From Synechocystis sp. PCC 6803 substr. PCC-P (lineage in GTDB: Bacteria > Cyanobacteriota > Cyanobacteriia > Cyanobacteriales > Microcystaceae), in NCBI RefSeq assembly GCF_000284455.1, contig NC_017039.1, positions 330,001-362,000 on the forward strand: a stretch of DNA of 32,000 nucleotides, given 5' to 3'. Below are positions 4,486 through 32,000 of this stretch, piece after piece. The notes beneath the pieces are model-generated. The model was not told the origin of the DNA and searched no databases. It saw only the letters and a program-made list of their open reading frames with translations. The stretch's first letter is position 1. Every line of letters begins with the position of its first letter. A program made the translations under genes and the position numbers.

Positions 4486-4506
4486 TCCGCACCATCCAAC
4501 AAAAAA

Positions 4507-4533
4507 AGGCCCGCTGGTTTTTCCGTCGGGCCT
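4507..4533. terminator. Candidate bidirectional intrinsic terminator between convergent genes
   Basis: 7-bp GC-rich stem AGGCCCG (4507-4513) / CGGGCCT (4527-4533) with a 13-nt loop. An A7 run precedes it (a T7 run on the minus strand, immediately 3' of the hairpin for the DAHP synthase transcript). T-rich sequence follows it on the plus strand. Confidence 0.55.
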
Positions 4534-4567
4534 GGTTTAATCTGTTTTAGTTTTACAGCGCGAATTC

Positions 4568-8331: not shown

Positions 8332-8502
8332 AGAAAAGGGGAAAATTCCCAATAACAACAAAATTAAGCTGGGGGAGCCGGACTTTCTGCAATCCAATGC
8401 CGATGATAACGCGAGGGCCTGTCGGCAAAGTTTTAGTTTCCCGGCCAAAACTTGGCACTAAATAAAAGCTCCGACAATATTAAAGGGCTTTCAAAACAAG
8501 CT

Positions 8503-12150: not shown

Positions 12151-12759
12151 TTACGTTAAATCAGTCTCCATGCCAACTTCATCCACCAATGCCGGCAGAT
12201 TCAGGGTGGCATAAATTTCCGCCAAAGGAATGGCTAAATTAAGCGCCTCAATGTCGGCGATCGCCTCTAGACCCTCATAGGACTTCAGCAACCAAAAATC
12301 CTGGGGAGTCCGCTGAAAACACTCCACCAAATACTGCTGGGCGTTGACCAAAATATACGCCCATAAACTGGGCAGGGTGCGGTAATCCTGAAACTTTTTG
12401 CCCCGGTCAAAGCCTTCTGTGGATTCCGACAAAACCTCAATAATCACCCTGGGAAAATTAACAAATGCCTGGCTCGGAGCATCTCTTTCGTCACAAGTTA
12501 CCAACAGGTCAGGATAATAAAACCGTCTTCCTTCCTTTAGTTTCACCTTCAAATCAGCAAAGTAGACACGACAGCCAGAATTTTGGAGGCGACTACGAAG
12601 GGCCATGTAAAAATTGCCACTGATGATGTTGTGAATTCCACCAGTGCCGGCCATGGCGTAAATCTGGCCATCGATGTATTCATGCTTAACGTCACTGCGG
12701 CTTTCCAGCTCTAAGTAATCGTCGGGGGAAAAGTATCCATTGGAGGAGAGCGCAACCAT
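12151..12759 (-). CDS. Uma2 (DUF820) family putative endonuclease, copy 1 of 5
   Basis: Family-typical N-terminus ([28 protein letters not shown]) and a PD-(D/E)xK-like core (YYPDLLVTC ... [12 protein letters not shown] ... DRGKKFQDY). The stop lies 11 nt upstream of the dusA start. The track start at 12771 is TTG; I prefer the ATG at 12759. Confidence 0.85.
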
Positions 12760-18700: not shown

Positions 18701-19429
18701 ATGTCAGCAATAACGGCCCAGGAACTGGAATCACAAATGCCGGATGCCACTATGCTTTTGAGTGATGAACCGGAGATGGAAAGTTCAGTGCATTATTTGC
18801 AACTGCTCTTGCTAGTTACTAGTCTGGAGTGGGCCTGGCGTCAGAGGGATGATTTTTTTATTGGTGCCAACCTAACCATCTACTTCAGTCGACAACAACT
18901 CAAACACCGTGATTTTCGAGGCCCTGATTTTTTCCTGGTCAAGAATACCACCAGACACCCCCGCAATTCCTGGGTCGTGTGGGAGGAAGACGGGCGCTAC
19001 CCCGACTTGATCATTGAGCTACTTTTCGAGTCCACTGCCAAAGTGGATAGAACCACCAAGCTGGACCTTTATGCCACTAGGTTCCACACCCCTGAGTATT
19101 TTTATTTTTCCCCTGAAACTTTGGAATTTGCCGGTTTTAGGTTAAATTTCAACCAATACTCTCCCGTAATTCCCAATGAGCAAGGATGGCTATGGAGTGA
19201 GGCGCTGGGATTTTTTCTTGGCATCCACCAGGGTCAGTTGCGCTATTTTTCCGTGGAGGGAATTTTAGTACCTACCCCTGAGGAGGCGGCCCAACAGGAA
19301 ATATTGAGGCCTGACCAGGCCATGGCAAAGGTAGAGCAGGAGGCTCAACGGGCGGACCAAGAAAAATTCAGGGCCGATCGCCTGGCGGCCAAGCTGAGGG
19401 AGTTGGGATTGGATCCCGATGATGTTTAG
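18701..19429 (+). CDS. Uma2 (DUF820) family putative endonuclease with a C-terminal coiled-coil tail, copy 2 of 5 (paralogue of 27748-28608)
   Basis: ATG start preceded by GGAGG (18691-18695) with a 5-nt spacer. The core is GPDFFLV ... YPDLIIELLFEST. The tail is charged and helical (AKVEQEAQRADQEKFRADRLAAKLRELG). The gene ends 38 nt before the wzm ATG. Confidence 0.85.
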   Translation: MSAITAQELESQMPDATMLLSDEPEMESSVHYLQLLLLVTSLEWAWRQRDDFFIGANLTIYFSRQQLKHRDFRGPDFFLVKNTTRHPRNSWVVWEEDGRYPDLIIELLFESTAKVDRTTKLDLYATRFHTPEYFYFSPETLEFAGFRLNFNQYSPVIPNEQGWLWSEALGFFLGIHQGQLRYFSVEGILVPTPEEAAQQEILRPDQAMAKVEQEAQRADQEKFRADRLAAKLRELGLDPDDV

Positions 19430-19467
19430 CCATGGGCCTTTGGGCGTAGCAAAAATTGACCTCAAGT

Positions 19468-20298
19468 ATGAAAACTTCCCCCCCAGAACTGATTATTGAA
19501 GCAGGACGCACGGAGCGTCAGTATTGGCAAGACCTATGGCGTTACCGGGAATTGTTTTACACCCTGGCTTGGCGGGACATTGCGGTACGGTACAAACAAA
19601 CGGCGATCGGTATAGCTTGGGCCTTAATCCGGCCATTTTTGACCATGGTGGTGTTTACGGTGGTATTTGGTAAGTTGGCTAATTTACCTTCGGAGGGGGT
19701 GCCCTATCCCATTCTGGTGTTTGCGGGAATGTTGCCCTGGCAGTTTTTTTCCACTTCCCTTAGTTCCGCCAGCGATAGTCTAATTGCCAATGCCAATCTA
19801 ATTTCTAAGGTGTATTTTCCTCGCTTAGTGGTGCCTACCAGTGCCGTGGTGACTAGCTTTGTTGATTTTTTAATTTCTGGGATGATTATGTTGGGGCTGA
19901 TGGCTTGGTATAATTTCTTGCCCAGTTGGCATGTGATTACATTGCCTTTCTTCATTTTGATTGCCTTTATGGCTTCCATGGGAGCAGGGTTATGGCTTTG
20001 TTCCCTCAATGTCAAATACCGAGATTTTCGCTACATTGTGCCATTCATTGTCCAATTTGGTTTGTACATTTCCCCGGTGGGTTTTAGTAGTAATGTGGTG
20101 CCGGAAAAATGGCGATTGCTCTATTCCATTAACCCGATGGTGAGTGTAATTGATGGTTTTCGTTGGGCGATTTTGGGGGGAGAATCAACTATATTTCTGC
20201 CGGGTTTTTTGTTGTCTTTACTGTTGGTGATCATTATTTTTATAACAGGAATTCTCTATTTTCGTAAGATGGAACGCACCTTCGCTGATGTGATTTAA
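19468..20298 (+). CDS. wzm: ABC-2 type polysaccharide/O-antigen exporter permease
   Basis: YRELFYTLAWRDIAVRYKQTAIGIAWALIRPFLTMVVFTVVFG is the hallmark Wzm/KpsM N-terminal motif, followed by 6 TM segments. The track start at 19456 is TTG; I prefer the ATG at 19468 (MKTSPPELI...). Confidence 0.9.
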   Translation: MKTSPPELIIEAGRTERQYWQDLWRYRELFYTLAWRDIAVRYKQTAIGIAWALIRPFLTMVVFTVVFGKLANLPSEGVPYPILVFAGMLPWQFFSTSLSSASDSLIANANLISKVYFPRLVVPTSAVVTSFVDFLISGMIMLGLMAWYNFLPSWHVITLPFFILIAFMASMGAGLWLCSLNVKYRDFRYIVPFIVQFGLYISPVGFSSNVVPEKWRLLYSINPMVSVIDGFRWAILGGESTIFLPGFLLSLLLVIIIFITGILYFRKMERTFADVI

Positions 20299-20487
20299 CC
20301 ATGGCAACAAACAAATGGTTTTATGAGCTATTGAAGGATTTTAAATACAGTTGCCTGAATTGGGTTTGACCGTGGCACAAGTTGCTCAGGTTGAACAGTT
20401 GAACAATGGCGATCGCCAAAGTAAGCTACCCATTAAAATAGGATTATCTTGCCCTGACCCTCAATGTGATTAAATTTCCTGGCATTA

Positions 20488-20916
20488 TTGCCATCAAGCA
20501 TCTTAACGGTGCTATTGATTACGATCGCCTTTTTGAGGTTCTATGACCAAACCGACTTTGAATTCCTCGGACTCGTTGCCAATCCCCGACAGTGGAGCAA
20601 TGGATTCACTGTGGCAGCCCTCCTGGCTACATTGGCTAATTTCGGCGTTGAGTGGAACCGTCGAAATCGAGAAACAAACCGCTTGGCTCAAGAAGCACAA
20701 CGAAGAGTTGAGGAAGGGCAACGCAGAATGGCTCAGGAAAGAGCAGATGAGTCTCGAAGAGCTGAGGAGAGAGAACGCCAAATTGCGCGAACTCGAATCG
20801 AAACTCGATGCCGTATTGCCGAAATACAATTCCAGCTTGACCCCTCAGACCGAAATCGAAGACTCTTAAGGGAGGCCTTAGCACTACTGGCTGAATATGG
20901 TGATCTGTTCTCGTAA
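20488..20916 (+). CDS. Hypothetical protein; the reading frame is uncertain (142-aa TTG-start frame versus the overlapping 108-aa ATG-start frame at 20543-20869)
   Basis: The longest ORF has a TTG start, two N-terminal hydrophobic segments and an Arg/Glu-rich remainder. The +1-shifted frame has an ATG with GAGG upstream and reads as a heptad coiled coil. See the finding for this locus. Confidence 0.4.
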   Translation: MPSSILTVLLITIAFLRFYDQTDFEFLGLVANPRQWSNGFTVAALLATLANFGVEWNRRNRETNRLAQEAQRRVEEGQRRMAQERADESRRAEERERQIARTRIETRCRIAEIQFQLDPSDRNRRLLREALALLAEYGDLFS

Positions 20917-21035
20917 AGGCGATCGCCTAGGAATTTGCCCATTACAATGAAATCATCTTCTCTCCATTTTTGATGTGGTTAGATTTTCTGGCTGACCCCA
21001 TCCAATAAAAAGAGTGACTAAATACTACTACTACT

Positions 21036-21467
21036 ATGGAGCAACTTTACGAAAGAGATTTTAGTCGATGGGCAGAAACCATGGCCGATCTCCTTGCTGC
21101 AGGGGATTTTACGTCCCTTGATATCGAGAATTTAGTGGAGGAAGTCCGGGATTTGTCAAAACGGGAAAGGGATCGCCTTTTAAGTAGTTTACGTTTAATT
21201 CTTCATCACTTCCTCAATTGGGACTACCAGCCCCAGAAACGTTCCCGCAGTTGGCAGAATACAATTGATCGAGAGCGGAACAATATTGAACTATATCTTG
21301 AGGACAGTCCCAGTCTGCAGCGTTATCTCAATGATGGGGTGTCTCTCGCTAAAATGTATCGGCTGGCGCGGGCCGACGCGATCCGGGAAACTGATTTAGA
21401 TTTTCCCAAAGATTGCCTATACGATATGGAAGATGTATTAAGTCGCGTTATTTCCCTCGGTGAATGA
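21036..21467 (+). CDS. DUF29 family protein (copy 1 of 2)
   Basis: 143-aa ORF with an ATG start. LYERDFSRWAETMADLLAAGDFTSLDIENLVEEVRDLSKRERDRLLSSLRLILHHFLNWDYQPQKRSRSWQNTI matches the DUF29 consensus as I remember it (LYExDFxxW ... LDxxNLIEEIExLG ... W.YQP..RS.SW). Confidence 0.85.
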   Translation: MEQLYERDFSRWAETMADLLAAGDFTSLDIENLVEEVRDLSKRERDRLLSSLRLILHHFLNWDYQPQKRSRSWQNTIDRERNNIELYLEDSPSLQRYLNDGVSLAKMYRLARADAIRETDLDFPKDCLYDMEDVLSRVISLGE

Positions 21468-21537
21468 TCCTCTAGAGGGCGATCGCCAAATGAAAACCAA
21501 TTGTTAAAATTAATTCACTCTTCTAAGCTGCACCATT

Positions 21538-22101
21538 ATGGCTACCGTTTTAGACCTTCAGCCAATTATTTCGTTGAACCGAGGGCAATTTTATCAGCTC
21601 TGTCAAAACAATCCTGACCTCAGCCTAGAAAGAAACCCCCAAGGGAAGCTCATCATTCTGTCCCCAGTTGGTGGTGAAAGTGGTGCCCAAGAAGCGAGCC
21701 TTATTTTCAAAGTTTCTCTCTGGAATTATCAGAGTCAACTCGGAATTGTCTTTAGTTCCTCAACAATCTTTAGCCTACCCCAAGGTGGCGATCGCTCCCC
21801 CGATGTGGCTTGGGTCTCCCGAGGTAATTGGGAAAAGTTAACCCCAGCAGAACGAGAGGGTTTTCCCCCAATTTGTCCTGATTTTGTGATTGAACTCAGA
21901 TCAAAAAGTGATCGTCTTAAACCCCTACAAGACAAAATGCTAGAGTACCTAACATCTGGTTTGCAACTAGGCTGGCTAATCAATCCACAACAAAAACAGG
22001 TGGAGATCTACCGCCAAAATCAACCCACAGAAATAACTAATCTCCCCACAAAATTGTCTGGGGAGAATGTTTTACCCGGATTTAGCATTTCTCTAGACTA
22101 G
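21538..22101 (+). CDS. Uma2 (DUF820) family putative endonuclease, copy 3 of 5
   Basis: 187-aa ORF with an ATG start. The core is SPDVAWVS ... CPDFVIELRSKSD ... KMLEYLTSGLQLGWLINPQQKQVEIY. It lies 70 nt downstream of the DUF29 gene. Confidence 0.85.
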   Translation: MATVLDLQPIISLNRGQFYQLCQNNPDLSLERNPQGKLIILSPVGGESGAQEASLIFKVSLWNYQSQLGIVFSSSTIFSLPQGGDRSPDVAWVSRGNWEKLTPAEREGFPPICPDFVIELRSKSDRLKPLQDKMLEYLTSGLQLGWLINPQQKQVEIYRQNQPTEITNLPTKLSGENVLPGFSISLD

Positions 22102-22262
22102 TTTTTTTTGTGGTCTATGGCTAATTCCTAAAAGTTGTCAGTTTTCTGCGGATGAGTTACTAAATCCAGAGTTTTTTCCTGATTAAGAATTGAACAATTA
22201 TTTTTTTGGCTTTGTCTGGTAAGCTTACGCTATCTGGTTAGGGCGTTTTAAAAACTTTATTT

Positions 22263-23555
22263 ATGTCTGATACAGTCATTCGAGTGGAAAATCTTGGGAA
22301 AAAATATATCATCGGTCACCAGCGGCGGGAACGCTATACAACTCTCCGGGATATGATGGCAGAGAAGGCCCGCTCCTTTGGTCAGATGTTTAGACGTAAT
22401 GGTAAGGAAGATTACCCTACCCACGAAGAGTTTTGGGCGCTGAAGGATGTGTCCTTTGAAATTAAGCAGGGCGATCGGGTTGGCATTATTGGGCGCAATG
22501 GGGCGGGTAAGTCAACACTTTTAAAGATTCTCAGCCGGATTACGGAGCCGACGGAGGGGCGCATTTCTATTAAGGGTCGGGTGGCGAGTCTGTTGGAGGT
22601 GGGGACGGGGTTCCATCCTGAGTTGACGGGGCGGGAGAATATTTATCTGAATGGGGCGATTTTGGGGATGGGCAAGGCGGAAATTAAGAAGAAGTTTGAT
22701 GAGATTGTGGCGTTTGCGGAGGTGGAGAAGTTTTTGGATACTCCTGTCAAGCGGTATTCTTCGGGGATGTATGTGCGCTTGGCGTTTGCGGTGGCGGCCC
22801 ATTTGGAGCCGGAAATTTTAATTGTGGATGAAGTGTTGGCGGTGGGAGATGCCCAGTTTCAAAAACGTTGCCTTGGCAAAATGGAGGATGTTGCAGAAAA
22901 AGAGGGTAGAACGGTAATTTTTGTTAGCCATGCTATGCCCATGATTGCTTCTTTATGTAATAGCTGTTTTCTCCTAAAGCACGGCGAAGTTATTAAGGAA
23001 GGAAGTCCCGGCTCTGTAATTGCCTATTACCAAAGTGATGGACAGCATAGTCCAGGCTCTGTTGACTATACTTCATCTCCTTCTCCCCCTGGAGACCATT
23101 TAGCAGTTTTAAGAAGGGGATGGATCGAAAATGAAAAAGGAGAGCAATCTTTAGATGTTCGGATTGATGAGCCCCTAACGGTTTATATGGAATATGAAGT
23201 TCAACAAAAAACACCAGGCACCCCCTATCCAAATTTTCACTTTTATGATGATAAAAATAATTGTGCTTTTGTGACTGCCGCTATGGTTGATATAAATTCT
23301 CCTCTAGAAGAGGGAGTTTATCGTGCCCTTTGTCATATCCCGGCCAATTTTTTGAACGACGGTGTTTACTCGGTGGGATTGGCTGTCACGTTTATGCACT
23401 CAGGCGTCCACGTCAGTTTTTATGATCAATCTGCTTTGGTTTTTAATGTGACTGACCCGATTGAAGGGGTGATAACCCGGGGCATGGGTTATGTAGGGCC
23501 GATACCAGGGGTTTTAAGGCCAGTACTTGACTGGAATGTGGAGAAAATTGCATGA
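22263..23555 (+). CDS. wzt: Polysaccharide/O-antigen ABC exporter ATP-binding protein with a C-terminal substrate-binding-type extension
   Basis: Walker A GRNGAGKST, signature YSSGMYVRLAFAVA, Walker B ILIVDEVLAVGD. An additional ~170-aa beta-rich C-terminal domain follows residue ~250 and is typical of Wzt rather than KpsT. Confidence 0.92.
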   Translation: MSDTVIRVENLGKKYIIGHQRRERYTTLRDMMAEKARSFGQMFRRNGKEDYPTHEEFWALKDVSFEIKQGDRVGIIGRNGAGKSTLLKILSRITEPTEGRISIKGRVASLLEVGTGFHPELTGRENIYLNGAILGMGKAEIKKKFDEIVAFAEVEKFLDTPVKRYSSGMYVRLAFAVAAHLEPEILIVDEVLAVGDAQFQKRCLGKMEDVAEKEGRTVIFVSHAMPMIASLCNSCFLLKHGEVIKEGSPGSVIAYYQSDGQHSPGSVDYTSSPSPPGDHLAVLRRGWIENEKGEQSLDVRIDEPLTVYMEYEVQQKTPGTPYPNFHFYDDKNNCAFVTAAMVDINSPLEEGVYRALCHIPANFLNDGVYSVGLAVTFMHSGVHVSFYDQSALVFNVTDPIEGVITRGMGYVGPIPGVLRPVLDWNVEKIA

Positions 23556-24322
23556 AAGCTGTAATTCTTGCCGGTGGCTTGGGGACTAGAATTTCCGAAG
23601 AAACTCATCTTCGACCTAAGCCGATGATTGACATTGGCGGGCGACCCATTCTCTGGCACATCCTTAAACTCTATTCTGCCTACGGTGTAAATGATTTTAT
23701 TATTTGCTGTGGTTATAAAGGCTATGTTATTAAGGAATATTTTGCCAATTATTTTCTACATATGTCCGATGTAACCTTTGACATGGTTTCCAATGAAATG
23801 ATTGTCCATCAGAGAAAGGCAGAGCCATGGAAAGTGACCTTAGTGGATACCGGGGAAAATTCCCTTACAGGGGGAAGATTAAAGCGGATTAAAACTTTTA
23901 TTGAAAATGACAATGCTTTTTGTTTTACCTATGGTGATGGTTTGGCAAATATTAATATTCAAGAATTAATTGCTTTTCATCAAAGTCATGGTAGGTTGGC
24001 TACGGTCACAGCAGTTGTGCCCCCCGGTCGATACGGCGCACTGAAATTAGAAAACTCTAAGGTTTTCGGGTTTACGGAAAAGCCTCCCGGTGATGGCGGT
24101 CTAATTAACGGCGGTTTCTTTGTTTTATCTCCCCGTTGCTTGGATTTTATTGGGGGGGATATGGATAGTTGGGAGGGTGAGCCCCTAACTGAATTGTCTG
24201 GTAAGGGGGAGTTGATGGCATTTGAGCATAGGGGTTTTTGGCAACCAATGGATACTTTACGGGATAAGAATCATCTAGAAGAGTTGTGGCAATCTGGTCA
24301 GGCTCCTTGGAAGGTATGGTAA
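23552..24322 (+). CDS. rfbF: Glucose-1-phosphate cytidylyltransferase
   Basis: MKAVILAGGLGTRISEETHLRPKPMIDIGGRPILWHILKLYSAYGVNDFIICCGYKGYVIKEYFANYFLHMSDVTF is near-identical in pattern to enterobacterial RfbF/DdhA. The start overlaps the wzt stop (ATGA). Confidence 0.93.
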   Translation: MKAVILAGGLGTRISEETHLRPKPMIDIGGRPILWHILKLYSAYGVNDFIICCGYKGYVIKEYFANYFLHMSDVTFDMVSNEMIVHQRKAEPWKVTLVDTGENSLTGGRLKRIKTFIENDNAFCFTYGDGLANINIQELIAFHQSHGRLATVTAVVPPGRYGALKLENSKVFGFTEKPPGDGGLINGGFFVLSPRCLDFIGGDMDSWEGEPLTELSGKGELMAFEHRGFWQPMDTLRDKNHLEELWQSGQAPWKVW

Positions 24323-25405
24323 ATGCTAGATAAGTCGTTTTGGCAAGGTAAATCCGTTTTTTTAACGGGCCATACGGGTTTTAAAGGCAGTTGGTTAACT
24401 CTCTGGCTCAGTCAGTTGGGAGCAAAGGTGTCGGGCTATTCATTAGATCCTCTGACAAACCCTAACTTATGTGAACTGGCTGAAATTGCTAAATGTTTGC
24501 GCTCTGATACTCGGGCTGATGTCAATGATTTAGCGAATCTTCAAAAGGCGATCGCCGAAGCCAGGCCGGAGATTGTCTTTCACCTTGCAGCCCAGCCTCT
24601 AGTGCGCCGTAGCTATCGTGATCCAGTCGGCACTTTTGCCACTAACGTGATGGGAACTGCCCACCTTCTTGAGGCGTTGCGGGCCTCTGACTCAGTGCGA
24701 GTGGTGGTGATTGTGACTACCGATAAGGTTTATCGCAATGTTGAATGGTGTTGGCCATACCGAGAAGATGATCAACTGGGAGGTCATGATCCCTATAGTG
24801 CGAGCAAGGCCGCCTGCGAAATCGTAGTAGCCAGTTATCGTGATGCCTTTCTTCGAGAACAAGGAGTGGCCGTGGCCAGCGCCCGGGCCGGCAATGTCAT
24901 CGGAGGGGGAGATTGGTCAGAGGATCGTCTCATTCCTGATGTTGTCCGCGCCCTAGATGCAAAAACGATGGTCATAATCCGTCGTCCCCAAGCTATTCGT
25001 CCCTGGCAACATGTGTTAGAGCCTCTAGCTGGCTATTTATTGTTAGCTCAAAAACTTTGGCATTCACCAGAATTGGCAGGGGCCTATAACCTAGGCCCGG
25101 AAACAAAAGACGCAGCCACTGTGCGTCAAATATTAGAATTTGCTTCGCGAATAGAACCCGGCTTGCAAGTGGAATATGGCGATGGCAATGAAGGGCCCCA
25201 TGAGGCGGGTTGGTTATCCCTCGAGATTGCAAAAGCGCGAACTTTACTGGGATATCGTCCTAGTTGGGGGGTCGAGGAGGCAGTACGACGCACAATGATC
25301 TGGTATCGTTCTCAACGACAGGGAGAAAGCCCATTAACTCTTTGTCAGACAGAAATTGAAGAATATGAAAAGGAGCTAATGGCTCTGTCAGACCTTGCTA
25401 TCTGA
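24323..25405 (+). CDS. rfbG: CDP-glucose 4,6-dehydratase
   Basis: FWQGKSVFLTGHTGFKGSWLTLWLSQLGAKVSGYSL is the RfbG/DdhB N-terminal NAD-binding motif. The SDR catalytic YSASK is present. The start codon directly abuts the rfbF stop. Confidence 0.92.
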   Translation: MLDKSFWQGKSVFLTGHTGFKGSWLTLWLSQLGAKVSGYSLDPLTNPNLCELAEIAKCLRSDTRADVNDLANLQKAIAEARPEIVFHLAAQPLVRRSYRDPVGTFATNVMGTAHLLEALRASDSVRVVVIVTTDKVYRNVEWCWPYREDDQLGGHDPYSASKAACEIVVASYRDAFLREQGVAVASARAGNVIGGGDWSEDRLIPDVVRALDAKTMVIIRRPQAIRPWQHVLEPLAGYLLLAQKLWHSPELAGAYNLGPETKDAATVRQILEFASRIEPGLQVEYGDGNEGPHEAGWLSLEIAKARTLLGYRPSWGVEEAVRRTMIWYRSQRQGESPLTLCQTEIEEYEKELMALSDLAI

Positions 25406-25423
25406 AACAAAAACCCAGCAAAA

Positions 25424-25993
25424 ATGACTACTATGGGAAGATTTTTGACTGAAGATTTGGGCATTGCCGGACTCAGAACCGTTATCCGTCAGCCCATCGG
25501 CGATCGCCGGGGATTTTTGGCCCGTTTGTTTTGTGCTGAGGAGTTGAAGGAAGTAGGTTGGCATAAACCCATTGCCCAGATTAACCATACCCATACGGCC
25601 CAAGGCGGCACTGTGCGAGGTATGCATTACCAAAATCCTCCCTCTGCGGAAATGAAATTGGTTACTTGCATTCGGGGTCAGGTTTGGGATGTGGCGGTGG
25701 ATTTGCGGGTTGATTCCCCCACTTTTTTGACTTGGCAAGGGGTAGTACTAAGTGCGGATAACAATAGGGCATTGTTGATACCCGAAGGCTGTGCCCATGG
25801 TTTTCAAGCCTTGAGCGATGATGTTGAATTGATTTACTGTCACTCGGTCGCCTATAACCCGATGGCGGAAGGGGGGTTGAATCCCCAAGATCCTCGCCTA
25901 GGGATTGAGTGGCCCCAAGCAATTACCGAATTATCCCAGCGAGACCAAAATCACCCCTTACTAGATTCCACCTTTTTAGGTCTGAGTTTATGA
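25424..25993 (+). CDS. RmlC-like cupin NDP-4-keto-6-deoxyhexose epimerase (3,5- or mono-epimerase; nucleotide specificity probably CDP given the context)
   Basis: 189-aa ORF. RGFLARLF ... VRGMHYQ ... KLVTCIRGQVWDVAVDLRVDSPTFLTW ... LLIPEGCAHGFQAL matches the dTDP-4-dehydrorhamnose 3,5-epimerase fold family. Confidence 0.85.
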   Translation: MTTMGRFLTEDLGIAGLRTVIRQPIGDRRGFLARLFCAEELKEVGWHKPIAQINHTHTAQGGTVRGMHYQNPPSAEMKLVTCIRGQVWDVAVDLRVDSPTFLTWQGVVLSADNNRALLIPEGCAHGFQALSDDVELIYCHSVAYNPMAEGGLNPQDPRLGIEWPQAITELSQRDQNHPLLDSTFLGLSL

Positions 25994-27210
25994 AATGTCG
26001 CCATTGCCATACACCTTTAAAGCAAACATTCCTGGATTTGGGTTTTGCCCCCCCGTCCAATGCCTATTTGAACCAGATTGATTTAAGTAGACCGGAGGTT
26101 ACTTATCCATTAAGGATCAAGGTTTGTGAACAGTGTTGGCTAGTACAAACAGAAGACTACACCCAGGCGGAAGAGTTATTCTGTGGGGACTATGCCTATT
26201 TTTCCAGCACGTCTAGTAGTTGGCTTAGCCATGCGGCCCGTTATGTGGAAAAGATTACAGAGCGGCTAGGTTTGACTACGGATAGTTTTGTCATTGAGGT
26301 GGCGGCCAATGATGGCTATCTGCTCAAGAATTTTGTGGCGGCGGGGGTTCCCTGTCTGGGCATTGAACCAACAGCTAGCACGGCGGCGGCGGCGGAAAAA
26401 CTAGGGATTGCTGTTTTAAAAGAGTTTTTTGGAGAAAATTTAGGGCGATCGCTCTCAGCAAAGGGCCAACAGGCTGATTTGATTATTGGTAATAATGTCT
26501 TTGCCCATGTACCGGATATTAATGATTTTACGTTGGGTTTAAAACAAGCCCTGAAACCAGGGGGAACCATTACCTTAGAATTTCCCCACCTAATGCAATT
26601 ACTGGCCCAGACCCAATTTGATACGGTTTACCATGAGCATTTTTCCTATCTTTCTCTCTACACGGTCACAAAAATCTTTGCTAAAGCTGGCTTGCAGGTG
26701 TGGGATGTGGAAGAGTTACCTACCCATGGCGGCAGTTTACGGGTCTATGGCTGTCATCTAGGCGATCGCCAAGTTAGTGAGCGAGTAAGGGAATTATTGA
26801 AACAGGAAACGGCCCAGGGTTTACAGGATTTAGCAATCTATCAGCATTTCCAGGAACGGGCAGATCAGATTAAAAATCAATTGCTAGCCTTTTTGATTGA
26901 ACAGAAAACAGCGGGGAAGGTGGTGGCCGGTTATGGGGCAGCGGCTAAAGGTAATACTTTGCTCAATTATGCTGGGGTGAAACCGGATTTGTTGCCCTTT
27001 GTTTGTGATGCATCTTCATCTAAGCAGGGTAAGTTTTTACCCGGTAGTCATATTGCCATTTTGCCTCCAACGGCGATCGCCGAAAAACACCCGGATTTTG
27101 TCCTGATTTTGCCTTGGAATTTACGGACAGAGATCATGACCCAGTTGGGCTATGTGGGAGACTGGGGGGGGCAATTTGTGACCGCAATTCCTAATTTACA
27201 GATTTGTTAG
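25990..27210 (+). CDS. SAM-dependent NDP-hexose C-methyltransferase (TylC3-like: N-terminal Zn-ribbon, class I methyltransferase core, C-methyltransferase C-terminal domain)
   Basis: From the ATG at 25990 (ATGA overlap with the epimerase stop) the ORF reads MKCRHCHTPLKQTFLDLGFAPPSNAYL ... CEQCWLVQ, which forms a four-Cys ribbon. The SAM motif is VIEVAANDGYLL, and the C-terminal domain contains VAGYGAAAKGNTLLNY. The track start at 25909 is an upstream extension inside the previous gene. Confidence 0.85.
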   Translation: MKCRHCHTPLKQTFLDLGFAPPSNAYLNQIDLSRPEVTYPLRIKVCEQCWLVQTEDYTQAEELFCGDYAYFSSTSSSWLSHAARYVEKITERLGLTTDSFVIEVAANDGYLLKNFVAAGVPCLGIEPTASTAAAAEKLGIAVLKEFFGENLGRSLSAKGQQADLIIGNNVFAHVPDINDFTLGLKQALKPGGTITLEFPHLMQLLAQTQFDTVYHEHFSYLSLYTVTKIFAKAGLQVWDVEELPTHGGSLRVYGCHLGDRQVSERVRELLKQETAQGLQDLAIYQHFQERADQIKNQLLAFLIEQKTAGKVVAGYGAAAKGNTLLNYAGVKPDLLPFVCDASSSKQGKFLPGSHIAILPPTAIAEKHPDFVLILPWNLRTEIMTQLGYVGDWGGQFVTAIPNLQIC

Positions 27211-27244
27211 AATGTTGAGCAGGTAAAGAAAATAAGCAACTCCT

Positions 27245-27697
27245 ATGGTTGAAGCAACAGCCCTCACCTCACTTTACGAACAAGATTATCCTGCCTGGTT
27301 AGATTTGACCCTAACACAACTTAAACAGCAGCAATTTAGCGTCATTGATTGGGCTAATTTGATTGAGGAAATAGAAGAATTGGGCCGAGAACAACGACAC
27401 AAGGTAGAAAGTTATCTGTTGCGTCTTCTCATCCACCTACTTTTGTACGAGCATTGGCAAGCTGAACGCCCCTGGTCAGGTAAAGGCTGGGAAAAAGAGA
27501 TTGATAATTTTCGGTTAGAGCTTGATTCCCTGCTGGAGTCCCAAGTTCTTCATAACCATTTTGAGACAGTTCTACCAAAAAACTACGCCAAAGCCCGCAA
27601 ACTGGCTATCAAAAAATCTCACTTATCACCAACAATATTTCCTGAAGTTTGTCCCTATACCCTGGGTCAAATTCTTGACTTTGGTTGGTTGCCATAA
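27245..27697 (+). CDS. DUF29 family protein (copy 2 of 2)
   Basis: 150-aa ORF with an ATG start. LYEQDYPAWLDLTLTQLKQQQFSVIDWANLIEEIEELGREQRHKVESYLLRLLIHLLLYEHW ... FPEVCPYTLGQILDFGWLP follows the DUF29 pattern. Confidence 0.85.
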   Translation: MVEATALTSLYEQDYPAWLDLTLTQLKQQQFSVIDWANLIEEIEELGREQRHKVESYLLRLLIHLLLYEHWQAERPWSGKGWEKEIDNFRLELDSLLESQVLHNHFETVLPKNYAKARKLAIKKSHLSPTIFPEVCPYTLGQILDFGWLP

Positions 27698-27747
27698 TCA
27701 AAAAAGTTTTTATAATTGTTGGTAAATTTACCGGACGATTAAGTATT

Positions 27748-28608
27748 ATGTCTGCCATAACTGCCCAAGAGTTAGAAGCTCAAATGCCCGATGCTAGTCA
27801 ATTATTGAGCGATGAACCAGAAATGGAAAGTTCTTTGCACTATATGCAGTTACTACTGTTAGTTACCTGCTTAGAATTGGCCTGGCAAGACCGAAACGAT
27901 TTTTTTATTGGTGCAAATTTGACTATCTATTTTAGCCGTCAGCAATTAAAGAGTCATGACTTTCGTGGTCCTGACTTTTTCTTGGTTAAAAATACTGCCA
28001 GAAAACCTCGAAAATCTTGGGTGGTTTGGGAGGAAGATGGTCGCTATCCTGATTTGATTATTGAGCTTTTATCGGATTCGACTGCAGACACTGATCGCCA
28101 TTTGAAACGAGATTTATACGCAGAAAGATTTCATACACCAGAATATTTTTATTTTTCTCCGGATACCCTGGAGTTGGCGGGCTTTAGGCTAGATGGTGAC
28201 AAGTATCAACCTATTATACCCAATGATCAGGGTTGGCTTTGGAGTAAGGTGCTGGGTTTTTTCTTGGGAATAGAGGGGCAAGAATTGCGCTATTTCACCC
28301 TAGAGGGCGCTGTTCTCCCCACCCCCCAAGAAGCGGTAAGAATAGAAGTGGACAAGGGGATGGCCATGGTTGAACAGGAAAGACTCAAGGCAATTCAAGC
28401 TGAGCAGGATGCTGAACAGGAAAGACTCAAGGCAACTCAAGCTCAACAGGATGCTGAACAGGAAAGACTCAAGGCAATTCAAGCTCAACAGGATGCTGAA
28501 CAGGAAAGACTCAAGGCAATTCAAGCTCAACAGGATGCTGAACAGGCTAAGGCTGAACTACAAAAATTACAAGATAAAGTTAGATCCCTTGGTATTTCTA
28601 TAGATTAA
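27748..28608 (+). CDS. Uma2 (DUF820) family putative endonuclease with an expanded repetitive coiled-coil tail, copy 4 of 5
   Basis: The alignment to the paralogue at 18701 begins exactly at MSAITAQELE, so I take the ATG at 27748 rather than the track start at 27685. The core is GPDFFLV ... YPDLIIELLSDST. The tail contains four 14-aa repeats. Confidence 0.87.
   Translation: MSAITAQELEAQMPDASQLLSDEPEMESSLHYMQLLLLVTCLELAWQDRNDFFIGANLTIYFSRQQLKSHDFRGPDFFLVKNTARKPRKSWVVWEEDGRYPDLIIELLSDSTADTDRHLKRDLYAERFHTPEYFYFSPDTLELAGFRLDGDKYQPIIPNDQGWLWSKVLGFFLGIEGQELRYFTLEGAVLPTPQEAVRIEVDKGMAMVEQERLKAIQAEQDAEQERLKATQAQQDAEQERLKAIQAQQDAEQERLKAIQAQQDAEQAKAELQKLQDKVRSLGISID
28382..28549 (+). repeat. 42-bp tandem repeat, 4 full copies plus a partial fifth, in-frame within the Uma2 gene
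   Basis: The unit is gaacaggaaagactcaaggcaattcaagctcaacaggatgct. Copies 3 and 4 are identical, copy 2 differs by 1 nt and copy 1 by 2 nt. Each unit encodes EQERLKAIQAQQDA, which is two heptads. Confidence 0.95.
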
Positions 28609-28615
28609 TTAGTTT

Positions 28616-28666
28616 ATGTCTAAATTCCGCGTTTACTACACTAATCCCTCGATCACCAAACTTTAA
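28616..28666 (+). pseudogene. Relic copy A of the 5' end of the DegT aminotransferase gene (17-codon stub ending in TAA)
   Basis: atgtctaaattccgcgtttactacactaatccctcgatcaccaaactttaa encodes MSKFRVYYTNPSITKL*. The live gene at 30030 begins MAKSRIYYTKPSITEL. The relic starts 7 nt after the Uma2 stop at 28608. Confidence 0.8.
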
Positions 28667-28759
28667 AGTGGAGAACTCCACCGCTGAGGCCAGCTATGAA
28701 GAAAAGATGCTAAAAGGTCACTTAGTTCTTAATTTACTTAACGGGGAAAATAAACTGCT

Positions 28760-29350
28760 ATGGTTTTTACATTAGAAAAGTCTCAATCAGCGGCTAATCA
28801 CTTAGTTTTACCAGGTGTTTCTTGGGAAAAGTTTGAGGAAATTGAAGCTACTTTTGAAGGTATTGAAGGAGTTCGTTTTATTTATTTAGATGGAGAGCTG
28901 GAAATTGTTATGAGTCCAAGCAAGGCCCATGAAAAAGCAAAAAGTACTATTGGGCTTTTGCTGGAAGCCTATATGAGGGCAAAGAAAATCAGGTTTTATA
29001 CGATGGGTAGTTTAACTTTAGGTACGAAAGAAGTTACGGGACGAAAGGAGCCAGATGAGTCCTATAATATTCACATAGTAAAGGACATTCCCGATTTAGT
29101 TATTGAGGTAATTGTCACTAGCGGGAGTATTAATATTTTGGAAATATACCGCCGCATTGGTGTTCCCGAAGTTTGGTTTTATCAGGATTCTGCATTGACC
29201 GTTTACACGCTTAAAGAGGGACAATATTTGAAGGTTGATAACAGTCAATTATTGCCAGAATTAAATCTAGAAATATTCGTAAAATATGTTAGTCACCCGG
29301 ATCAATATGATGCGGTAACTGAATTTATTGATGAGTTAACCTGTCTATAA
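28760..29350 (+). CDS. Uma2 (DUF820) family putative endonuclease, copy 5 of 5
   Basis: 196-aa ORF with an ATG start. LVLPGVSWEKFEEIEATFEGIEGVRFIYLDGELEIVMSPSKAHEKAKSTIGLLLEAY ... EPDESYNI ... IPDLVIEVIVTSGS ... YRRIGVPEVWFY follows the Uma2 pattern. The gene is visibly AT-rich. Confidence 0.85.
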   Translation: MVFTLEKSQSAANHLVLPGVSWEKFEEIEATFEGIEGVRFIYLDGELEIVMSPSKAHEKAKSTIGLLLEAYMRAKKIRFYTMGSLTLGTKEVTGRKEPDESYNIHIVKDIPDLVIEVIVTSGSINILEIYRRIGVPEVWFYQDSALTVYTLKEGQYLKVDNSQLLPELNLEIFVKYVSHPDQYDAVTEFIDELTCL

Positions 29351-29358
29351 TCGTTTTT

Positions 29359-29400
29359 ATTGCTAAATCCCGCATTTACTACACCAAGCCGTTGATCGCC
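29359..29400 (+). pseudogene. Relic copy B of the 5' end of the DegT aminotransferase gene (start codon degraded to ATT)
   Basis: attgctaaatcccgcatttactacaccaagccgttgatcgcc encodes (I)AKSRIYYTKPLIA. It has 2 mismatches to the live gene over the first 30 nt. It starts 8 nt after the Uma2 stop at 29350 and runs directly into the DUF4160 gene. Confidence 0.8.
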
Positions 29401-29405
29401 ATACA

Positions 29406-29663
29406 ATGCCCATTATTAGTCGTTTTTTAGGAATCACAATCTGCATGTACTAGAATGATCGTTCGCCTCCCCACTACCATGCAAGATACGGTGAATATGA
29501 AATCATTGTCGAAATCGAAACAGGTGTAGTGAATGGGTCATTTCCAAAACGAGCATTACGTCATGTTTTAGAATGGCATGATTTACATCAACCCGAGTTA
29601 ATAGCCAATTGGCAACTTTGTCGCCAACAAGAAGATCTAAAATTCATTCTTCCTTTGGAGTAA
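29406..29663 (+). pseudogene. DUF4160 family gene interrupted by an in-frame TAG at codon 16
   Basis: Below the 60-aa threshold of the ORF track. Hand translation gives MPIISRFLGITICMY*NDRSPPHYHARYGEYEIIVEIETGVVNGSFPKRALRHVLEWHDLHQPELIANWQLCRQQEDLKFILPLE*. This is full-length colinear with the DUF4160 consensus (MP.IS.F.GI.I.MY.NDH.PPHFHA.YGEYEA...). The TAG at 29451-29453 replaces a conserved aromatic residue. Confidence 0.7.
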
Positions 29664-29667
29664 AGTT

Positions 29668-29973
29668 ATGTTTTTACATGTTGTTTCTGCTTCTTACATG
29701 GATAACTACAAAATTAAGCTTCAATTTAATGATCATCGTACTGGAATTGTCGATCTAGTCGATAGTTTAAACGGCAAGATGTTTAGTCCATTGCAAGATC
29801 TGGTTTTGTTTCAACAATTTGGAGTTGATGCAGAATTGGGAACAGTTTGTTGGTCAAATGGTGCTGACTTTGCGCCTGAATATCTGTATTTTCTCGCATT
29901 TCGTGATCTTCCTGAATTGAAGGAACAGTTTGAAAAATGGGGGTATTTGCGAGCTAAAGTTGCCGTTAGTTGA
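29668..29973 (+). CDS. DUF2442 family protein (usual partner of DUF4160)
   Basis: 101-aa ORF with an ATG 4 nt after the DUF4160 stop. YKIKLQFNDHRTGIVDL ... FGVDAELGTVCWSNGADFAPEYLY is the typical DUF2442 pattern. Confidence 0.8.
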   Translation: MFLHVVSASYMDNYKIKLQFNDHRTGIVDLVDSLNGKMFSPLQDLVLFQQFGVDAELGTVCWSNGADFAPEYLYFLAFRDLPELKEQFEKWGYLRAKVAVS

Positions 29974-30029
29974 TTCTACCTCTGAAATAAATAACCCTGA
30001 TATGTGGAGTTCAAATTAAGACTGATTTT

Positions 30030-31166
30030 ATGGCTAAATCCCGCATTTACTACACTAAGCCCTCAATAACTGAGCTGGAAGTCGAGTATGCTACTGATGC
30101 CGCTCGCAATGGCTGGGGCGATCGCTGTTATGAATATATTGTGCGTTTTGAAGAAGTATTTAAAAAATATTTAGGGGTCGAATATAGCATTGCAACTTCT
30201 AGCTGTACGGGGGCTTTGCACATGGGGATGGCGGCTCTGGGGATTGGCCCTGGTGATGAGGTGATTTTAGCGGATACGAATTGGATTGCTACGGTGGCTC
30301 CCATTGTCCATCTGGGGGCCAAGCCGGTATTTGTGGATATTTTGCCAGATAGTTGGTGTATTGATCCCGTTTTGGCGGAGCAAGCGATTACGCCACGGAC
30401 GAAGGCGATTGTGGCGACTCATATTTACGGCAATCTCTGTGATATGGAGGCTTTATTGGCGATCGAGCAACGCCATGGCATTCCGATTATTGAGGATGCG
30501 GCAGAGGCGATCGGCTCGGTTTACCATGGCAAGCGGGCTGGCTCGATGGGTAAGTTTGGCAGTTTTTCTTTCCACGGTACGAAGACGTTGACAACTGGGG
30601 AAGGGGGGATGTTCGTGACCAATGATCCTGATTTATACGAGACGGTGTTAACGCTCTCGAATCATGGCCGGGCTAGGGGGCAAACGAAGCAGTTTTGGGC
30701 GGATATGGTGGGCTTTAAATATAAGATGTCCAATATCCAAGCGGCGATCGGCTGTGCTCAAATGGAGCGCATTGAAGAGTTGGTTAGCCGTAAACGGGAA
30801 ATCCTTAGTTACTATAAAGAAAATTTGGAGTCTTTACCGGGGATAACAATGAATCCTGAGCCAAAGGGTATGGTTAATGGTGGATGGATGCCAACGGCGG
30901 TATTTAGCCCTGAATCTGGTATTACTCGGGAAAAGTTACAAGTCCTTTTTAAGGAGGCGAATGTGGATGCCCGTGTTTTCTTTTGGCCGTTATCGAGTTT
31001 ATCGATGTTTGATGATAAGCCCACAAATAAGTTGGCATGGGATATTCCAACAAGGGCAATAAATTTGCCTAGTTATCATGATTTGAGTGGCAAGGATATT
31101 AAACAGGTTATTGATTCTATGACAGACAATCTTTATCCGAAAAACGCAAATAGATCAAAAAAATGA
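30030..31166 (+). CDS. DegT/DnrJ/EryC1/StrS family PLP-dependent NDP-sugar aminotransferase
   Basis: 378-aa ORF with an ATG start. It contains TSSCTGALHMGMAALGIGPGDEVI, DAAEAIGS and FSFHGTKTLTTGEGG. The PLP lysine is present, which argues for an aminotransferase rather than an E1-type 3-dehydrase. Confidence 0.9.
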   Translation: MAKSRIYYTKPSITELEVEYATDAARNGWGDRCYEYIVRFEEVFKKYLGVEYSIATSSCTGALHMGMAALGIGPGDEVILADTNWIATVAPIVHLGAKPVFVDILPDSWCIDPVLAEQAITPRTKAIVATHIYGNLCDMEALLAIEQRHGIPIIEDAAEAIGSVYHGKRAGSMGKFGSFSFHGTKTLTTGEGGMFVTNDPDLYETVLTLSNHGRARGQTKQFWADMVGFKYKMSNIQAAIGCAQMERIEELVSRKREILSYYKENLESLPGITMNPEPKGMVNGGWMPTAVFSPESGITREKLQVLFKEANVDARVFFWPLSSLSMFDDKPTNKLAWDIPTRAINLPSYHDLSGKDIKQVIDSMTDNLYPKNANRSKK

Positions 31167-32000
31167 ATCAACGAATCAAAGTAATGATTGCTGGGATTGG
31201 AGGGGCTTCTCTTGGCACAGAAATTTGTAAGTCCCTCAAACTGGCTAAAATATACGACGTATTTGGATGTGATATTTCTGCTACTGCCTATGGTATGTAT
31301 GAAAATGACTTTTTGAATACCTATCAAGTCTCATCTAGTAACTATGCGAGAAATGTTCTGGATGTTTGTGTTGATGCGGGCGTAAAATGGCTAATCCCAG
31401 GTGGCGAAGAGCCAATGAAACTGTTAGGTCAAGAAACAAAAATGTTTGCTGCGGCAAATATTCATGTGGTAGCAAATTCACCTAGTTTAATATCTATTTG
31501 CTCCAATAAAAAGCGTACTTTTAATAAATTAACTGAGTTAGAAATATCAATTCCTAAAACTATTGCGCTACAAAGTAAATCAGATTTAGACTACATCGGA
31601 TTGCCCTGTATTGTTAAGCCTTCAACGGGAACAGGGGGTAGTGTTTCTGTCTTTTTTGCTGTTAGTTTTGAAGAGGCTATGGTTTATGCTGAGTTTATTA
31701 AACGTAATGGAAGCGAGCCTATCGCTCAAGAATATATTGATATTAACGAGGGCGAATTTACGATTGGTGTTTTGTCTCTTCCCAACCAAAATGTTGTCGG
31801 TTCGATTGCTCTAAAGCGAGAATTGAGCGCCAAATTATCCGTTGCATACCGAGGCCGTGGTGGTATTATTTCTAGTGGCTACTCCCAAGGGTACATTGGT
31901 GAATATCCAGAATTGTGTAAGCAAGCGGAAGATATAGCTAAAGCACTCAATAGTGCTGGCCCTATTAATATCCAAGCAAGAGTCAGGAATGGAAAACTTA
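31163..32000 (+). CDS. ATP-grasp domain ligase (carbamoyl-phosphate-synthase-L-like), N-terminal ~279 codons; continues beyond the right edge
   Basis: Absent from the ORF track because it is edge-truncated. The ATG at 31163 overlaps the aminotransferase stop (ATGA). Hand translation gives MNQRIKVMIAGIGGASLGTEICKSLK ... LPCIVKPSTGTGGSVSVFFAVSFEEAMVYAEF ... IAQEYIDINEGEFTIGVL ..., open to 32000. Confidence 0.75.
   Translation, partial: MNQRIKVMIAGIGGASLGTEICKSLKLAKIYDVFGCDISATAYGMYENDFLNTYQVSSSNYARNVLDVCVDAGVKWLIPGGEEPMKLLGQETKMFAAANIHVVANSPSLISICSNKKRTFNKLTELEISIPKTIALQSKSDLDYIGLPCIVKPSTGTGGSVSVFFAVSFEEAMVYAEFIKRNGSEPIAQEYIDINEGEFTIGVLSLPNQNVVGSIALKRELSAKLSVAYRGRGGIISSGYSQGYIGEYPELCKQAEDIAKALNSAGPINIQARVRNGKL

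Follow-up and report, generated by a model that had tools for sequence, protein, structure and literature searches.

The stretch of DNA examined here, called the window below, comprises 32,000 nucleotides of the genome of Synechocystis sp. PCC 6803 substr. PCC-P (contig NC_017039.1, positions 330,001 to 362,000 of the forward strand; coordinates are those of the window unless another locus is named). From position 18701 onward it carries an operon for Wzm/Wzt-dependent polysaccharide export, in which small accessory genes of the Uma2, DUF29 and other families stand in stacks just 5' of core genes. This article deals with these accessory genes, hereafter cassettes, and with the way in which they came to lie there.

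The gene order in the window is that of the published slr0976-slr0985 plus slr1610 cluster of Synechocystis sp. PCC 6803, and mutant phenotypes have been reported for the genes of its Wzm/Wzt export operon (PMC3769361, PMC7885315). The region belongs to the known rfb or extracellular polysaccharide (EPS) island of this organism, which is low in guanine plus cytosine (GC) and of which it forms the left end. To the right of slr0976/slr0977, a low-GC genomic island of about 40 kb is wholly different in strain PCC 6714, and it has been read as a surface-glycan diversification locus tied to phage avoidance (Kopf et al. 2014, PMC4060947). The comparison of the two strains concerns the same island, with its left border at slr0976/slr0977 and its low GC, and takes it as a whole; cassette stacks, ancestral empty sites and fossils of gene starts are not described there (PMC4060947). 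In the window, the GC fraction is about 0.50 left of 18.5 kb and drops to 0.37-0.45 inside the accessory blocks. An exact-protein look-up with Wzt returned identical PCC 6803-type assemblies only (CP094998.1 342263-363555 corresponds to window 12263-33555), and a Wzt scan of genome contigs found no other Synechocystis, the best match being a Chamaesiphon metagenome-assembled genome (73%).

The export operon and its accessory genes

Genes were checked by means of six-frame open reading frames (ORFs), junction sequences and Pfam scans; the gene calls and Pfam identities of an earlier, sequence-only reading of this DNA hold. The core genes are as follows.

19468-20298, plus strand: wzm/kpsM (slr0977), ABC-2 permease (Pfam ABC2_membrane)
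22263-23555, plus strand: wzt (slr0982-0985, slr1610 block; Pfam ABC_tran and Wzt_C)
23552-24322, plus strand: rfbF (Pfam NTP_transferase)
24323-25405, plus strand: rfbG (Pfam dehydratase)
25424-25993, plus strand: 3,5-epimerase gene (Pfam)
25990-27210, plus strand: C-methyltransferase gene (Pfam)
22263-27210, plus strand: core block wzt-rfbF-rfbG-epimerase-methyltransferase (slr0982-0985, slr1610), coupled or abutting
30030-31166, plus strand: DegT aminotransferase (AT) gene (Pfam), with which the core operon continues
31163 onward, past the window end at 32000, plus strand: ATP-grasp gene (Pfam), in ATGA overlap with AT

The ABC-2 permease, the ATPase with a Wzt C-terminal domain and the adjoining nucleotide-sugar genes, all recognized by Pfam, mark this set as a Wzm/Wzt export operon. 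From wzt to the methyltransferase gene the junctions measure -4, 0, 18 and -4 nt. The ATGA overlaps pointed out at 23552, 25990 and 31163 are real, and the rfbG ATG directly follows the rfbF TAA. Synteny of the core block is shared with five other loci (L001, L083, L084, L090 and L091; such numbers designate the loci compared). Protein identity of Wzm across cyanobacteria is 80-87%, that of AT homologues across phyla is about 80%, and AT begins with the near-invariant N-terminus IYYTKPSITELEVEYATDAA (120 homologues).

The accessory genes, together with a further Uma2 gene and its neighbour dusA to the left of the operon, are listed below.

18701-19429, plus strand: Uma2_A (slr0976), 38 nt 5' of wzm (Pfam Uma2, 9e-20)
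20488-20916, plus strand: small ORF (slr0978), start uncertain (20479, 20488 or 20509)
21036-21467, plus strand: DUF29_a (slr0980 by numbering; Pfam DUF29, 7e-43)
21538-22101, plus strand: Uma2_B (slr0981 by numbering; Pfam Uma2, 9e-45)
27245-27697, plus strand: DUF29_b (Pfam DUF29, 8e-44)
27748-28608, plus strand: Uma2_C (Pfam Uma2, 1e-21)
28760-29350, plus strand: Uma2_D (Pfam Uma2, 2e-20)
29406-29663, plus strand: DUF4160*, toxin pseudogene, from its translation (the repaired protein matches the full Pfam profile, 9e-20)
29668-29973, plus strand: DUF2442, antitoxin partner, 56 nt 5' of AT (Pfam DUF2442, 1e-13)
12151-12759, minus strand: Uma2_E, 11 nt 5' of dusA (Pfam Uma2, 2e-37)
11135-12139: dusA (Pfam Dus, 4e-109)

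The three accessory blocks of the operon occupy 5550 of 13300 nt (41.7%, or 33.8% for coding sequence only), close to the 40% estimated before, and 10 of 10 accessory genes are on the plus strand, which is that of the operon. The spacers of 34-189 nt said to set these genes off have the lengths given, with one correction (Uma2_C starts at ATG 27748, leaving a 50-nt gap after DUF29_b), but they are not all plain spacers, as those after Uma2_C and Uma2_D begin with fossils of the 5' end of AT.

A compact ancestral operon

L084, L090 (Oscillatoriales) and L091 (Spirulina-like) have rfbF, rfbG, epimerase, methyltransferase, AT and ATP-grasp genes in this order, with no cassette and with a 4-nt overlap between the methyltransferase and AT genes. 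No cassette is present either in L083, assembled from a public run, where the methyltransferase and epimerase genes are swapped and the gap before AT is 21 nt. Moreover, wzm abuts wzt (4-113 nt) in seven loci (L004, L009, L011, L022, L034, L053 and L066). Because cassette-free relatives have these junctions coupled or abutting, the blocks at 27211-30029 (2.8 kb) and 20299-22262 (2.0 kb) are insertions into once coupled or abutting junctions. The sequence-only reading had the cassettes placed at uncoupled junctions; with three cassette-free relatives overlapping at methyltransferase/AT and seven loci abutting at wzm/wzt, it is rather the insertions that made the gaps. In L001 (Chamaesiphon, Wzt 73% identical), the series from wzt through rfbF, rfbG and epimerase to methyltransferase is unbroken. 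The methyltransferase/AT junction was also considered as the border of two transferred modules, an idea ruled out by the four relatives that are contiguous across it.

Fossil gene starts between the cassettes

Self-comparison of the window, with local alignment scores set against 500 shuffles, revealed two relics of the beginning of AT within the 2.8-kb block.

28613-28656, plus strand: AT 5' relic 1 (86% identity with 30027-30070 over 44 nt), with its ATG 8 nt downstream of the Uma2_C stop codon
29355-29390, plus strand: AT 5' relic 2 (94% identity with 30026-30061 over 36 nt), which begins 10 nt downstream of the Uma2_D stop codon

Relic 1 scores 58 (shuffles 16.5 +/- 2.3, maximum 27), and a weaker, frameshifted similarity runs on to about 28700. 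Relic 2 scores 62 (shuffles about 14.3-15 +/- 2.3, maximum 32); its start codon is mutated to ATT, its similarity fades by about 29405, and the DUF4160 ATG comes directly after. The resulting order, Uma2_C, old AT start, Uma2_D, old AT start, DUF4160*-DUF2442 and AT, records at least two successive insertion events, one per fossil. Uma2_C and Uma2_D once sat 8-10 nt before an AT start, like Uma2_E, whose position on the minus strand 11 nt 5' of dusA is confirmed.

The fossils also carry information on the gene from which they come. Relic 1 encodes MSKFRVYYTNPSITKL, the N-terminus of another allele type, and at the few positions that vary, relic 1 (MSK..., ITKL) and the relic of a close relative, L082 (MNKPR...), fit other AT alleles and not the resident MAKSR. 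Because the encoded N-termini resemble other alleles, this suggests that each fossil is the start of an AT allele that was formerly resident, as opposed to a degraded duplicate of today's allele.

Fossils of this kind are rare. Of the 77 sequences compared (1.2 Mb), only the window, L002 and L028 yielded direct-repeat pairs in which a gene is preceded by an orphan copy of its exact start, and cassettes always lie between the copy and the gene. A protein-level relic scan of the loci gave no case besides L002 and L028.

Different cassette sets in close relatives

L082, with an AT protein 90% identical to that of the window (DNA 87-88%), keeps the Uma2_D orthologue (88% DNA), relic 2, remains of DUF4160, DUF2442 at the same spacing, and AT. 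Its DUF4160 has TGG at the window's TAG codon and the remainder is deleted. Between Uma2_D and relic 2 it has an extra 1.36 kb, made up of a DUF433/PIN-like pair and a second DUF4160/DUF2442 pair, and its relic keeps an ATG that overlaps the stop of the second DUF2442 gene as ATGA. The left joint of this insert is in the last four Uma2_D codons and the right joint about 15 nt into the relic. Since the right joint falls inside the relic, the fossil itself served as a recombination site.

At wzm, the closest loci are L085 and L088, with Wzm proteins 97% and 96% identical to that of the window. Two tandem Uma2 genes are found 5' of wzm in L085 (6327-7968) and L088 (4655-6279), where the window has one, and the breakpoint in this comparison is the conserved Uma2 3' tail. 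The window's Uma2_A resembles a fusion product, its 3' tail being nearer to the second copy (88% vs 81%). L088 has in addition a 208-aa gene between wzm and the slr0978 homologue, and the Uma2_E-dusA arrangement is also present in L085.

The cassette complement is thus variable, with extra or missing cassettes in L082, L085 and L088. Deletion of slr0978-81 leaves adherence, flocculation and growth as in the wild type (PMC3769361). Together with cassette-free operons and the variable complement, this supports the view that the accessory genes were added to the operon secondarily, on its strand, and can be dispensed with; the sequence-only reading, which called them hitchhikers, was right in spirit.

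Recurrence at wzt and AT in other cyanobacteria

We surveyed 76 wzt loci from a species-level genome collection, 36 cyanobacterial and 40 non-cyanobacterial. They were searched with the window proteins, with profile models built and iterated on the ORFs of these loci, and with Pfam. Cassette genes lie directly 5' of wzt in 9 of the 36 cyanobacterial loci, always on the wzt strand.

L028, 5' of wzt in order: Uma2, DUF29, MNT, HEPN, BrnT, BrnA, wzt relic, DUF29
L017, 5' of wzt in order: DUF29, BrnT, BrnA, HicB-like, HicA
L018, 5' of wzt in order: Uma2, Uma2, Uma2, DUF29
L008 (Dolichospermum), 5' of wzt: Uma2 fragments, DUF29
L007, 5' of wzt: Uma2, DUF29 fragment
L031, 5' of wzt: frameshifted Uma2
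L016, 5' of wzt: DUF29
L001, 5' of wzt: DUF2887, Uma2 fragment
L002, 5' of wzt: relic, DUF2887, relic, BrnT/BrnA, relic, DUF29, with three or four relics of the wzt 5' end

The 2.6 kb on the 5' side of wzt, 14% of the sampled DNA, hold 16 of 22 Uma2/DUF29 ORFs, all of these on the wzt strand (binomial p ~1e-9); a few hits are fragments of one pseudogene. Counted by locus, the split is 9 vs 5. The 40 non-cyanobacterial wzt loci gave no Uma2 or DUF29 hits.

Relatives of the window's own cassettes are among these genes. Three Pseudanabaena loci (L017, L018 and L028) have a homologue of DUF29_a (about 70% identical) on the 5' side of wzt, a DUF29_b homologue (63% identical) is directly 5' of wzt in L008, and a Uma2_C homologue (68% identical) adjoins DUF29 and wzt in L018. 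As for AT, a DUF29 gene lies 32 nt before its homologue in L092, and Uma2 is found before a DegT gene in L028. Hence, the 5' side of wzt and of AT is supported as a recurrent landing place in other cyanobacteria. The stacks at these other loci also include bona fide toxin-antitoxin pairs. DUF29 is next to Uma2 in 6 of 12 DUF29 occurrences, in either order (window 21036-22101 and 27245-28608; L018, L028, L007 and L008), which may reflect either a functional pair or merely common hot spots.

The wzt relics in L002 and L028 share 81-94% identity with the intact gene. Three (b and c of L002, and that of L028) have the same ends, from about -13 to +190, and stop just before the Walker A codons. Relic b of L002 is split by a 135-nt insert (about 8290-8430) with perfect 13-nt terminal inverted repeats (CCCAGTTAAGGTG / CACCTTAACTGGG), flanked on both sides by duplicated GGTCGCTAAAG, which looks like a miniature transposable element. 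Two further loci have two complete wzt genes each (L010 6615-9762 and L020 1624-6202), with a 5' stretch of about 740 nt that is 89-91% identical and a different remainder, which suggests swapping of the C-terminal glycan-binding domain.

A separate set of 20 metagenome loci was picked via a Uma2_D relative itself. Within 10 independent contexts, the downstream neighbour is co-oriented in about 5 and convergent in about 5. Of the closest Uma2_D relatives, that in L093 precedes an epimerase gene and that in L094 closes a Uma2-DUF29x4-Uma2 array; neither is placed before AT. In the L094 array (1213-4588), a Uma2 gene is followed by four DUF29 copies in tandem, which recur every 500 nt and are 77-85% identical, and then by the Uma2_D-like gene; a 50-nt copy (96%) of the 3' end of its last gene lies upstream of it, at 1213-1262.

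Families of the cassettes

The cassette families are toxin-antitoxin-like and phage-defence-candidate families expanded in cyanobacteria. DUF4160/DUF2442 is the dhiTA type II toxin-antitoxin pair, for which toxicity neutralised by the partner was shown only in Dickeya dadantii (PMC8198452), and such a pair raises plasmid persistence in Thermus (PMC12724237). In the window, the two genes are 4 nt apart, as adjacent as a dhiTA-type pair should be. The toxin is not intact: the 85-codon full-length gene has a single in-frame TAG at 29451-29453 (codon 16). The pair is a decayed module with an orphan antitoxin.

All five Uma2 copies (Uma2/DUF820, PF05685) are above the Pfam gathering score (71-153 bits vs a cutoff of 27) and conserve the PD...E core (PD ... 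E-x-x-S), the P-D and E columns being invariant in the alignment. Uma2_B matches PDB 1WDJ (TT1808; 2e-39), and four PDB matches carry generic names only (hypothetical, uncharacterized, or "putative restriction endonuclease domain-containing protein"). Uma2 is thereby a putative endonuclease of PD-(D/E)XK fold. By PADLOC profile, Uma2_D (PDC-S17, 8e-73) and Uma2_E (PDC-S03, 1e-29) are phage-defence candidates; the other Uma2 copies are weak matches. Both DUF29 copies (PF01724) are above the gathering score as well (146.5 and 149.6 bits vs 22.5). No solved structural relative of DUF29 was found by sequence, no PADLOC match was obtained for DUF29 or DUF2442, and slr0978 has no Pfam or PADLOC match.

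Uma2_A and Uma2_C share 71% protein identity, and their DNA similarity begins at the ATG. The 3' part of Uma2_C (28371-28546) contains 4.2 copies of a 42-nt unit (97% matches; Tandem Repeats Finder) that encodes AEQERLKAIQAQQD-type repeats; Q/E-rich tails ending in LRxLGI, like these repeats, are present in Uma2_A and in both Uma2 genes of L028. A 108-codon ORF lies within slr0978 in another frame (20543-20869). HIP1 palindromes (GCGATCGC) are found at 20409 (spacer before slr0978), 20919 (3 nt past its stop) and 21479 (12 nt past the DUF29_a stop), and a 16-nt inverted repeat with HIP1 brackets slr0978 (20522-20537 and 20910-20925). At one site per kb, the HIP1 sites at cassette junctions, and that about 25 nt past a wzt relic end, are not distinguishable from chance.

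Transcription signals

Two elements relevant to transcription were found around the cassettes.

22056-22109, plus strand: terminator-like hairpin followed by U8 at the Uma2_B 3' end (-18.9 kcal/mol, z = -2.7, 2 of 200 shuffles as stable)
27689-27716, plus strand: promoter-like TTGCCA-16-TATAAT 5' of Uma2_C (11 of 12 sigma-70-type matches, the best in 14.5 kb)

Convincing terminators had been found wanting at first sight, and 0 of 10 spacer segments is indeed more stable than shuffled sequence; the exception is the Uma2_B hairpin, with a stem of about 15 pairs, which a simple terminator scan overlooks on account of its 12-nt loop. Full co-transcription of cassettes and core genes, as the sequence-only reading proposed, is not supported. 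Besides the terminator-like hairpin and the promoter-like site, slr0982-slr1610 has been treated as a transcription unit of its own (PMC12285223), and slr1612, which by gene numbering would be Uma2_C, has been listed as SigD-dependent and slr0978 as SigC/E-dependent (PMC8875361). The locus is probably made up of several transcription units.

How the stacks may have formed

We hold it reasonably probable that cassettes are gained through recombination for which the conserved 5' end of the core gene next to them, on the downstream side, serves as the anchor. The ancestor was a compact, coupled and horizontally acquired operon running from wzm, wzt, rfbF, rfbG, epimerase and C-methyltransferase to AT, ATP-grasp and onward. 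The starts of wzm, wzt and AT have since gathered stacks of Uma2/DUF820, DUF29 and the now decayed DUF4160/DUF2442 pair. For each event, the donor DNA would carry a cassette already lying before the conserved gene, plus the complete gene. One crossover would be homologous and fall within or beyond the conserved gene, with its highly conserved 5' part; the other joint would be illegitimate, some tens of bases into the copy that the recipient already has. The product would be the recipient's old gene start, left as a fossil, then the new cassette, then a complete gene. Repeats of this process would build a same-strand stack, and recombination between the repeated ends would remove cassettes. Short relics may persist through survivorship, since long direct repeats would delete the cassette again. 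Conserved AT or wzt 5' sequence does bound each cassette on the right. Anchored recombination would lead to same-strand stacks, to the position at gene starts, to the variable complement and to the like behaviour of unlike families. The cassettes themselves may be selfish, addictive or defensive.

Several points weigh against this reading. In the first two blocks of the window, nothing above chance was found as a relic of wzt, wzm or another gene end, and for two of the three blocks the insertion route is extrapolated from other loci. Illegitimate joints falling at random account less well for the +190 end common to three wzt relics than a site-specific process or shared ancestry does. Some of the events in the Pseudanabaena loci may have been inherited in common, and this would inflate the enrichment statistic given above. 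L082, L085 and L088 are short-read assemblies of public runs that could hold assembly errors, and the cassette joints are read from the recipient side only. Finally, the model leaves out how a cassette first came to lie 2-11 nt before a gene.

Other routes can be envisaged. Uma2 could be autonomously mobile, for example through nuclease-driven homing, inserting just 5' of and co-oriented with a gene whose promoter or translation it captures, within an operon read as one transcript. The tight original spacing agrees with this (Uma2_C and Uma2_D 8 and 10 nt from the fossil AT starts, Uma2_E 11 nt from dusA), as do the nuclease core conserved in all five copies and, for the single transcript, the spacers, none of which folds better than shuffled sequence apart from the Uma2_B 3' end. 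However, the insertion preference for which the sequence-only reading argued is unlikely to be specific to Uma2, because non-Uma2 families (DUF29, BrnTA, HicAB, HEPN/MNT, DUF4160/DUF2442, and DUF2887, a different nuclease-fold family) hold the same positions, flanked by the same relics. Nor is co-oriented placement a rule for Uma2, since about half of the independent Uma2_D-relative contexts have convergent downstream genes. No terminal inverted repeats or target-site duplications surround any cassette, and the single transcript is at odds with the terminator-like element after Uma2_B, the strong promoter-like site before Uma2_C and the sigma-factor-specific expression of slr1612 and slr0978 (PMC8875361). 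We consider this explanation quite unlikely. Even harder to sustain is the idea that the small genes serve the polysaccharide system itself, for example as regulators or in quality control of Wzm/Wzt export, and are kept along with it. DUF29 is directly 5' of wzt in 8 cyanobacterial loci, DUF29_a-like genes travel with wzt in Pseudanabaena and Synechocystis, and the spacing on the same strand is operon-like. Yet the unchanged phenotype of the slr0978-81 deletion (PMC3769361), the many relatives without any cassettes, the pseudogene copies (DUF4160* here, Uma2 fragments in L001, L008 and L031) and the presence of the same families elsewhere (at dusA here, in the hox operon (PMC4963859) and as a tandem DUF29 array in L094) make it highly improbable.

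A further route would be through short circular or excised units that carry the 5' segment of the target gene and enter by a single, Campbell-type crossover or with a trans-acting site-specific recombinase, which would amount to an integron-like array without its own integrase. The succession of relic, cassette and gene is the exact product of a single crossover with a circle carrying such a 5' segment, three wzt relics have identical ends (about -13 to +190), and the direct repeats around each cassette would permit excision. In addition, Synechocystis is naturally transformable. On the other hand, the AT relics are of unequal length (about 45 vs 44-90 nt) and a 20-codon wzt relic exists in L002; there is no recombinase gene in the window's 13 kb or in the L002 and L028 stacks, and no attC-like inverted repeat; and the identical ends may stem from one inherited event in related Pseudanabaenales. 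We rate this route as unlikely. The identical joint at about +190 in three wzt relics could nevertheless mean that the process is site-specific and not random. More tentatively, then, and on balance doubtfully, the first 40-190 bases of surface-glycan genes (wzt, AT) may act as portable attachment sites for an integrase-free exchange of cassettes in naturally competent cyanobacteria. If so, toxin-antitoxin and defence-candidate genes would shuttle with a gene start, stack in operon orientation and excise via the repeated starts.

Relationships with known systems

Anchored recombination, the reading that we favour, has parallels in several systems. The orphan toxin-immunity modules downstream of rhs and cdiA genes form arrays that lengthen when homologous recombination on one side takes place in a conserved part of the gene; a short piece of this part stays with every unit displaced. 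The present case is a mirror image: the anchor is the 5' end of a housekeeping-type sugar gene, the fragments are upstream, and what is carried in is separate from the anchor gene, unlike a variable domain belonging to it. Homology-facilitated illegitimate recombination, in which a homologous anchor is combined with a nearby illegitimate joint, takes place during natural transformation of Acinetobacter and explains foreign DNA beside a conserved gene in a competent host. For cyanobacterial cassette stacks it is a proposal. Integron arrays likewise stack small genes on one strand, often poor in promoters and with many toxin-antitoxin pairs among them, and build up at one entry point upstream of the residents. 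In contrast, the repeated element here is the start of the downstream gene; no integrase is found among the window ORFs, and no attI or attC sites. A search around the cassettes for terminal inverted repeats, attC-like ends or ends like those of miniature inverted-repeat transposable elements gave none that is convincing, only weak inverted repeats that are mostly HIP1-based.

The nearest case is that of the same organism. The hoxEFUYH operon of Synechocystis 6803 and 6714 has embedded toxin-antitoxin modules and a DUF820, that is Uma2, protein (Kopfmann et al. 2016, PMC4963859), small selfish-type genes that likewise lie on the operon strand between core genes. They are read as part of a longer transcript, and it was proposed that the embedded modules stabilise the gene cluster (PMC4963859). 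The hox arrangement is nevertheless conserved between both strains and no gene-start fossils are described for it, whereas here the complement varies in close relatives, the stacks reach up to five genes and fossil 5' ends are left between them. Overall, the island itself, the accretion of toxin-antitoxin and defence genes in islands, and displacement arrays are already known; what is new is that the operon was once coupled, that fossils of gene starts remain in it, that near relatives differ in their cassettes, and that the architecture recurs at wzt and AT in other cyanobacteria.

Concluding remarks

In practical terms, strain engineering at this EPS/O-antigen locus of the main model cyanobacterium has to reckon with inserts that can be dispensed with, with promoters and a terminator that probably lie inside it, and with "uncoupled" junctions that are secondary. 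The gene-start fossils explain why such genes are placed on the operon strand inside operons, as seen earlier for hox. Uma2/DUF820 and DUF29 are among the most expanded unexplained families in cyanobacteria, and the fossils offer a concrete, testable route for their spread. The link of phage-receptor glycan genes with defence-candidate cassettes may, in turn, bear on phage resistance.

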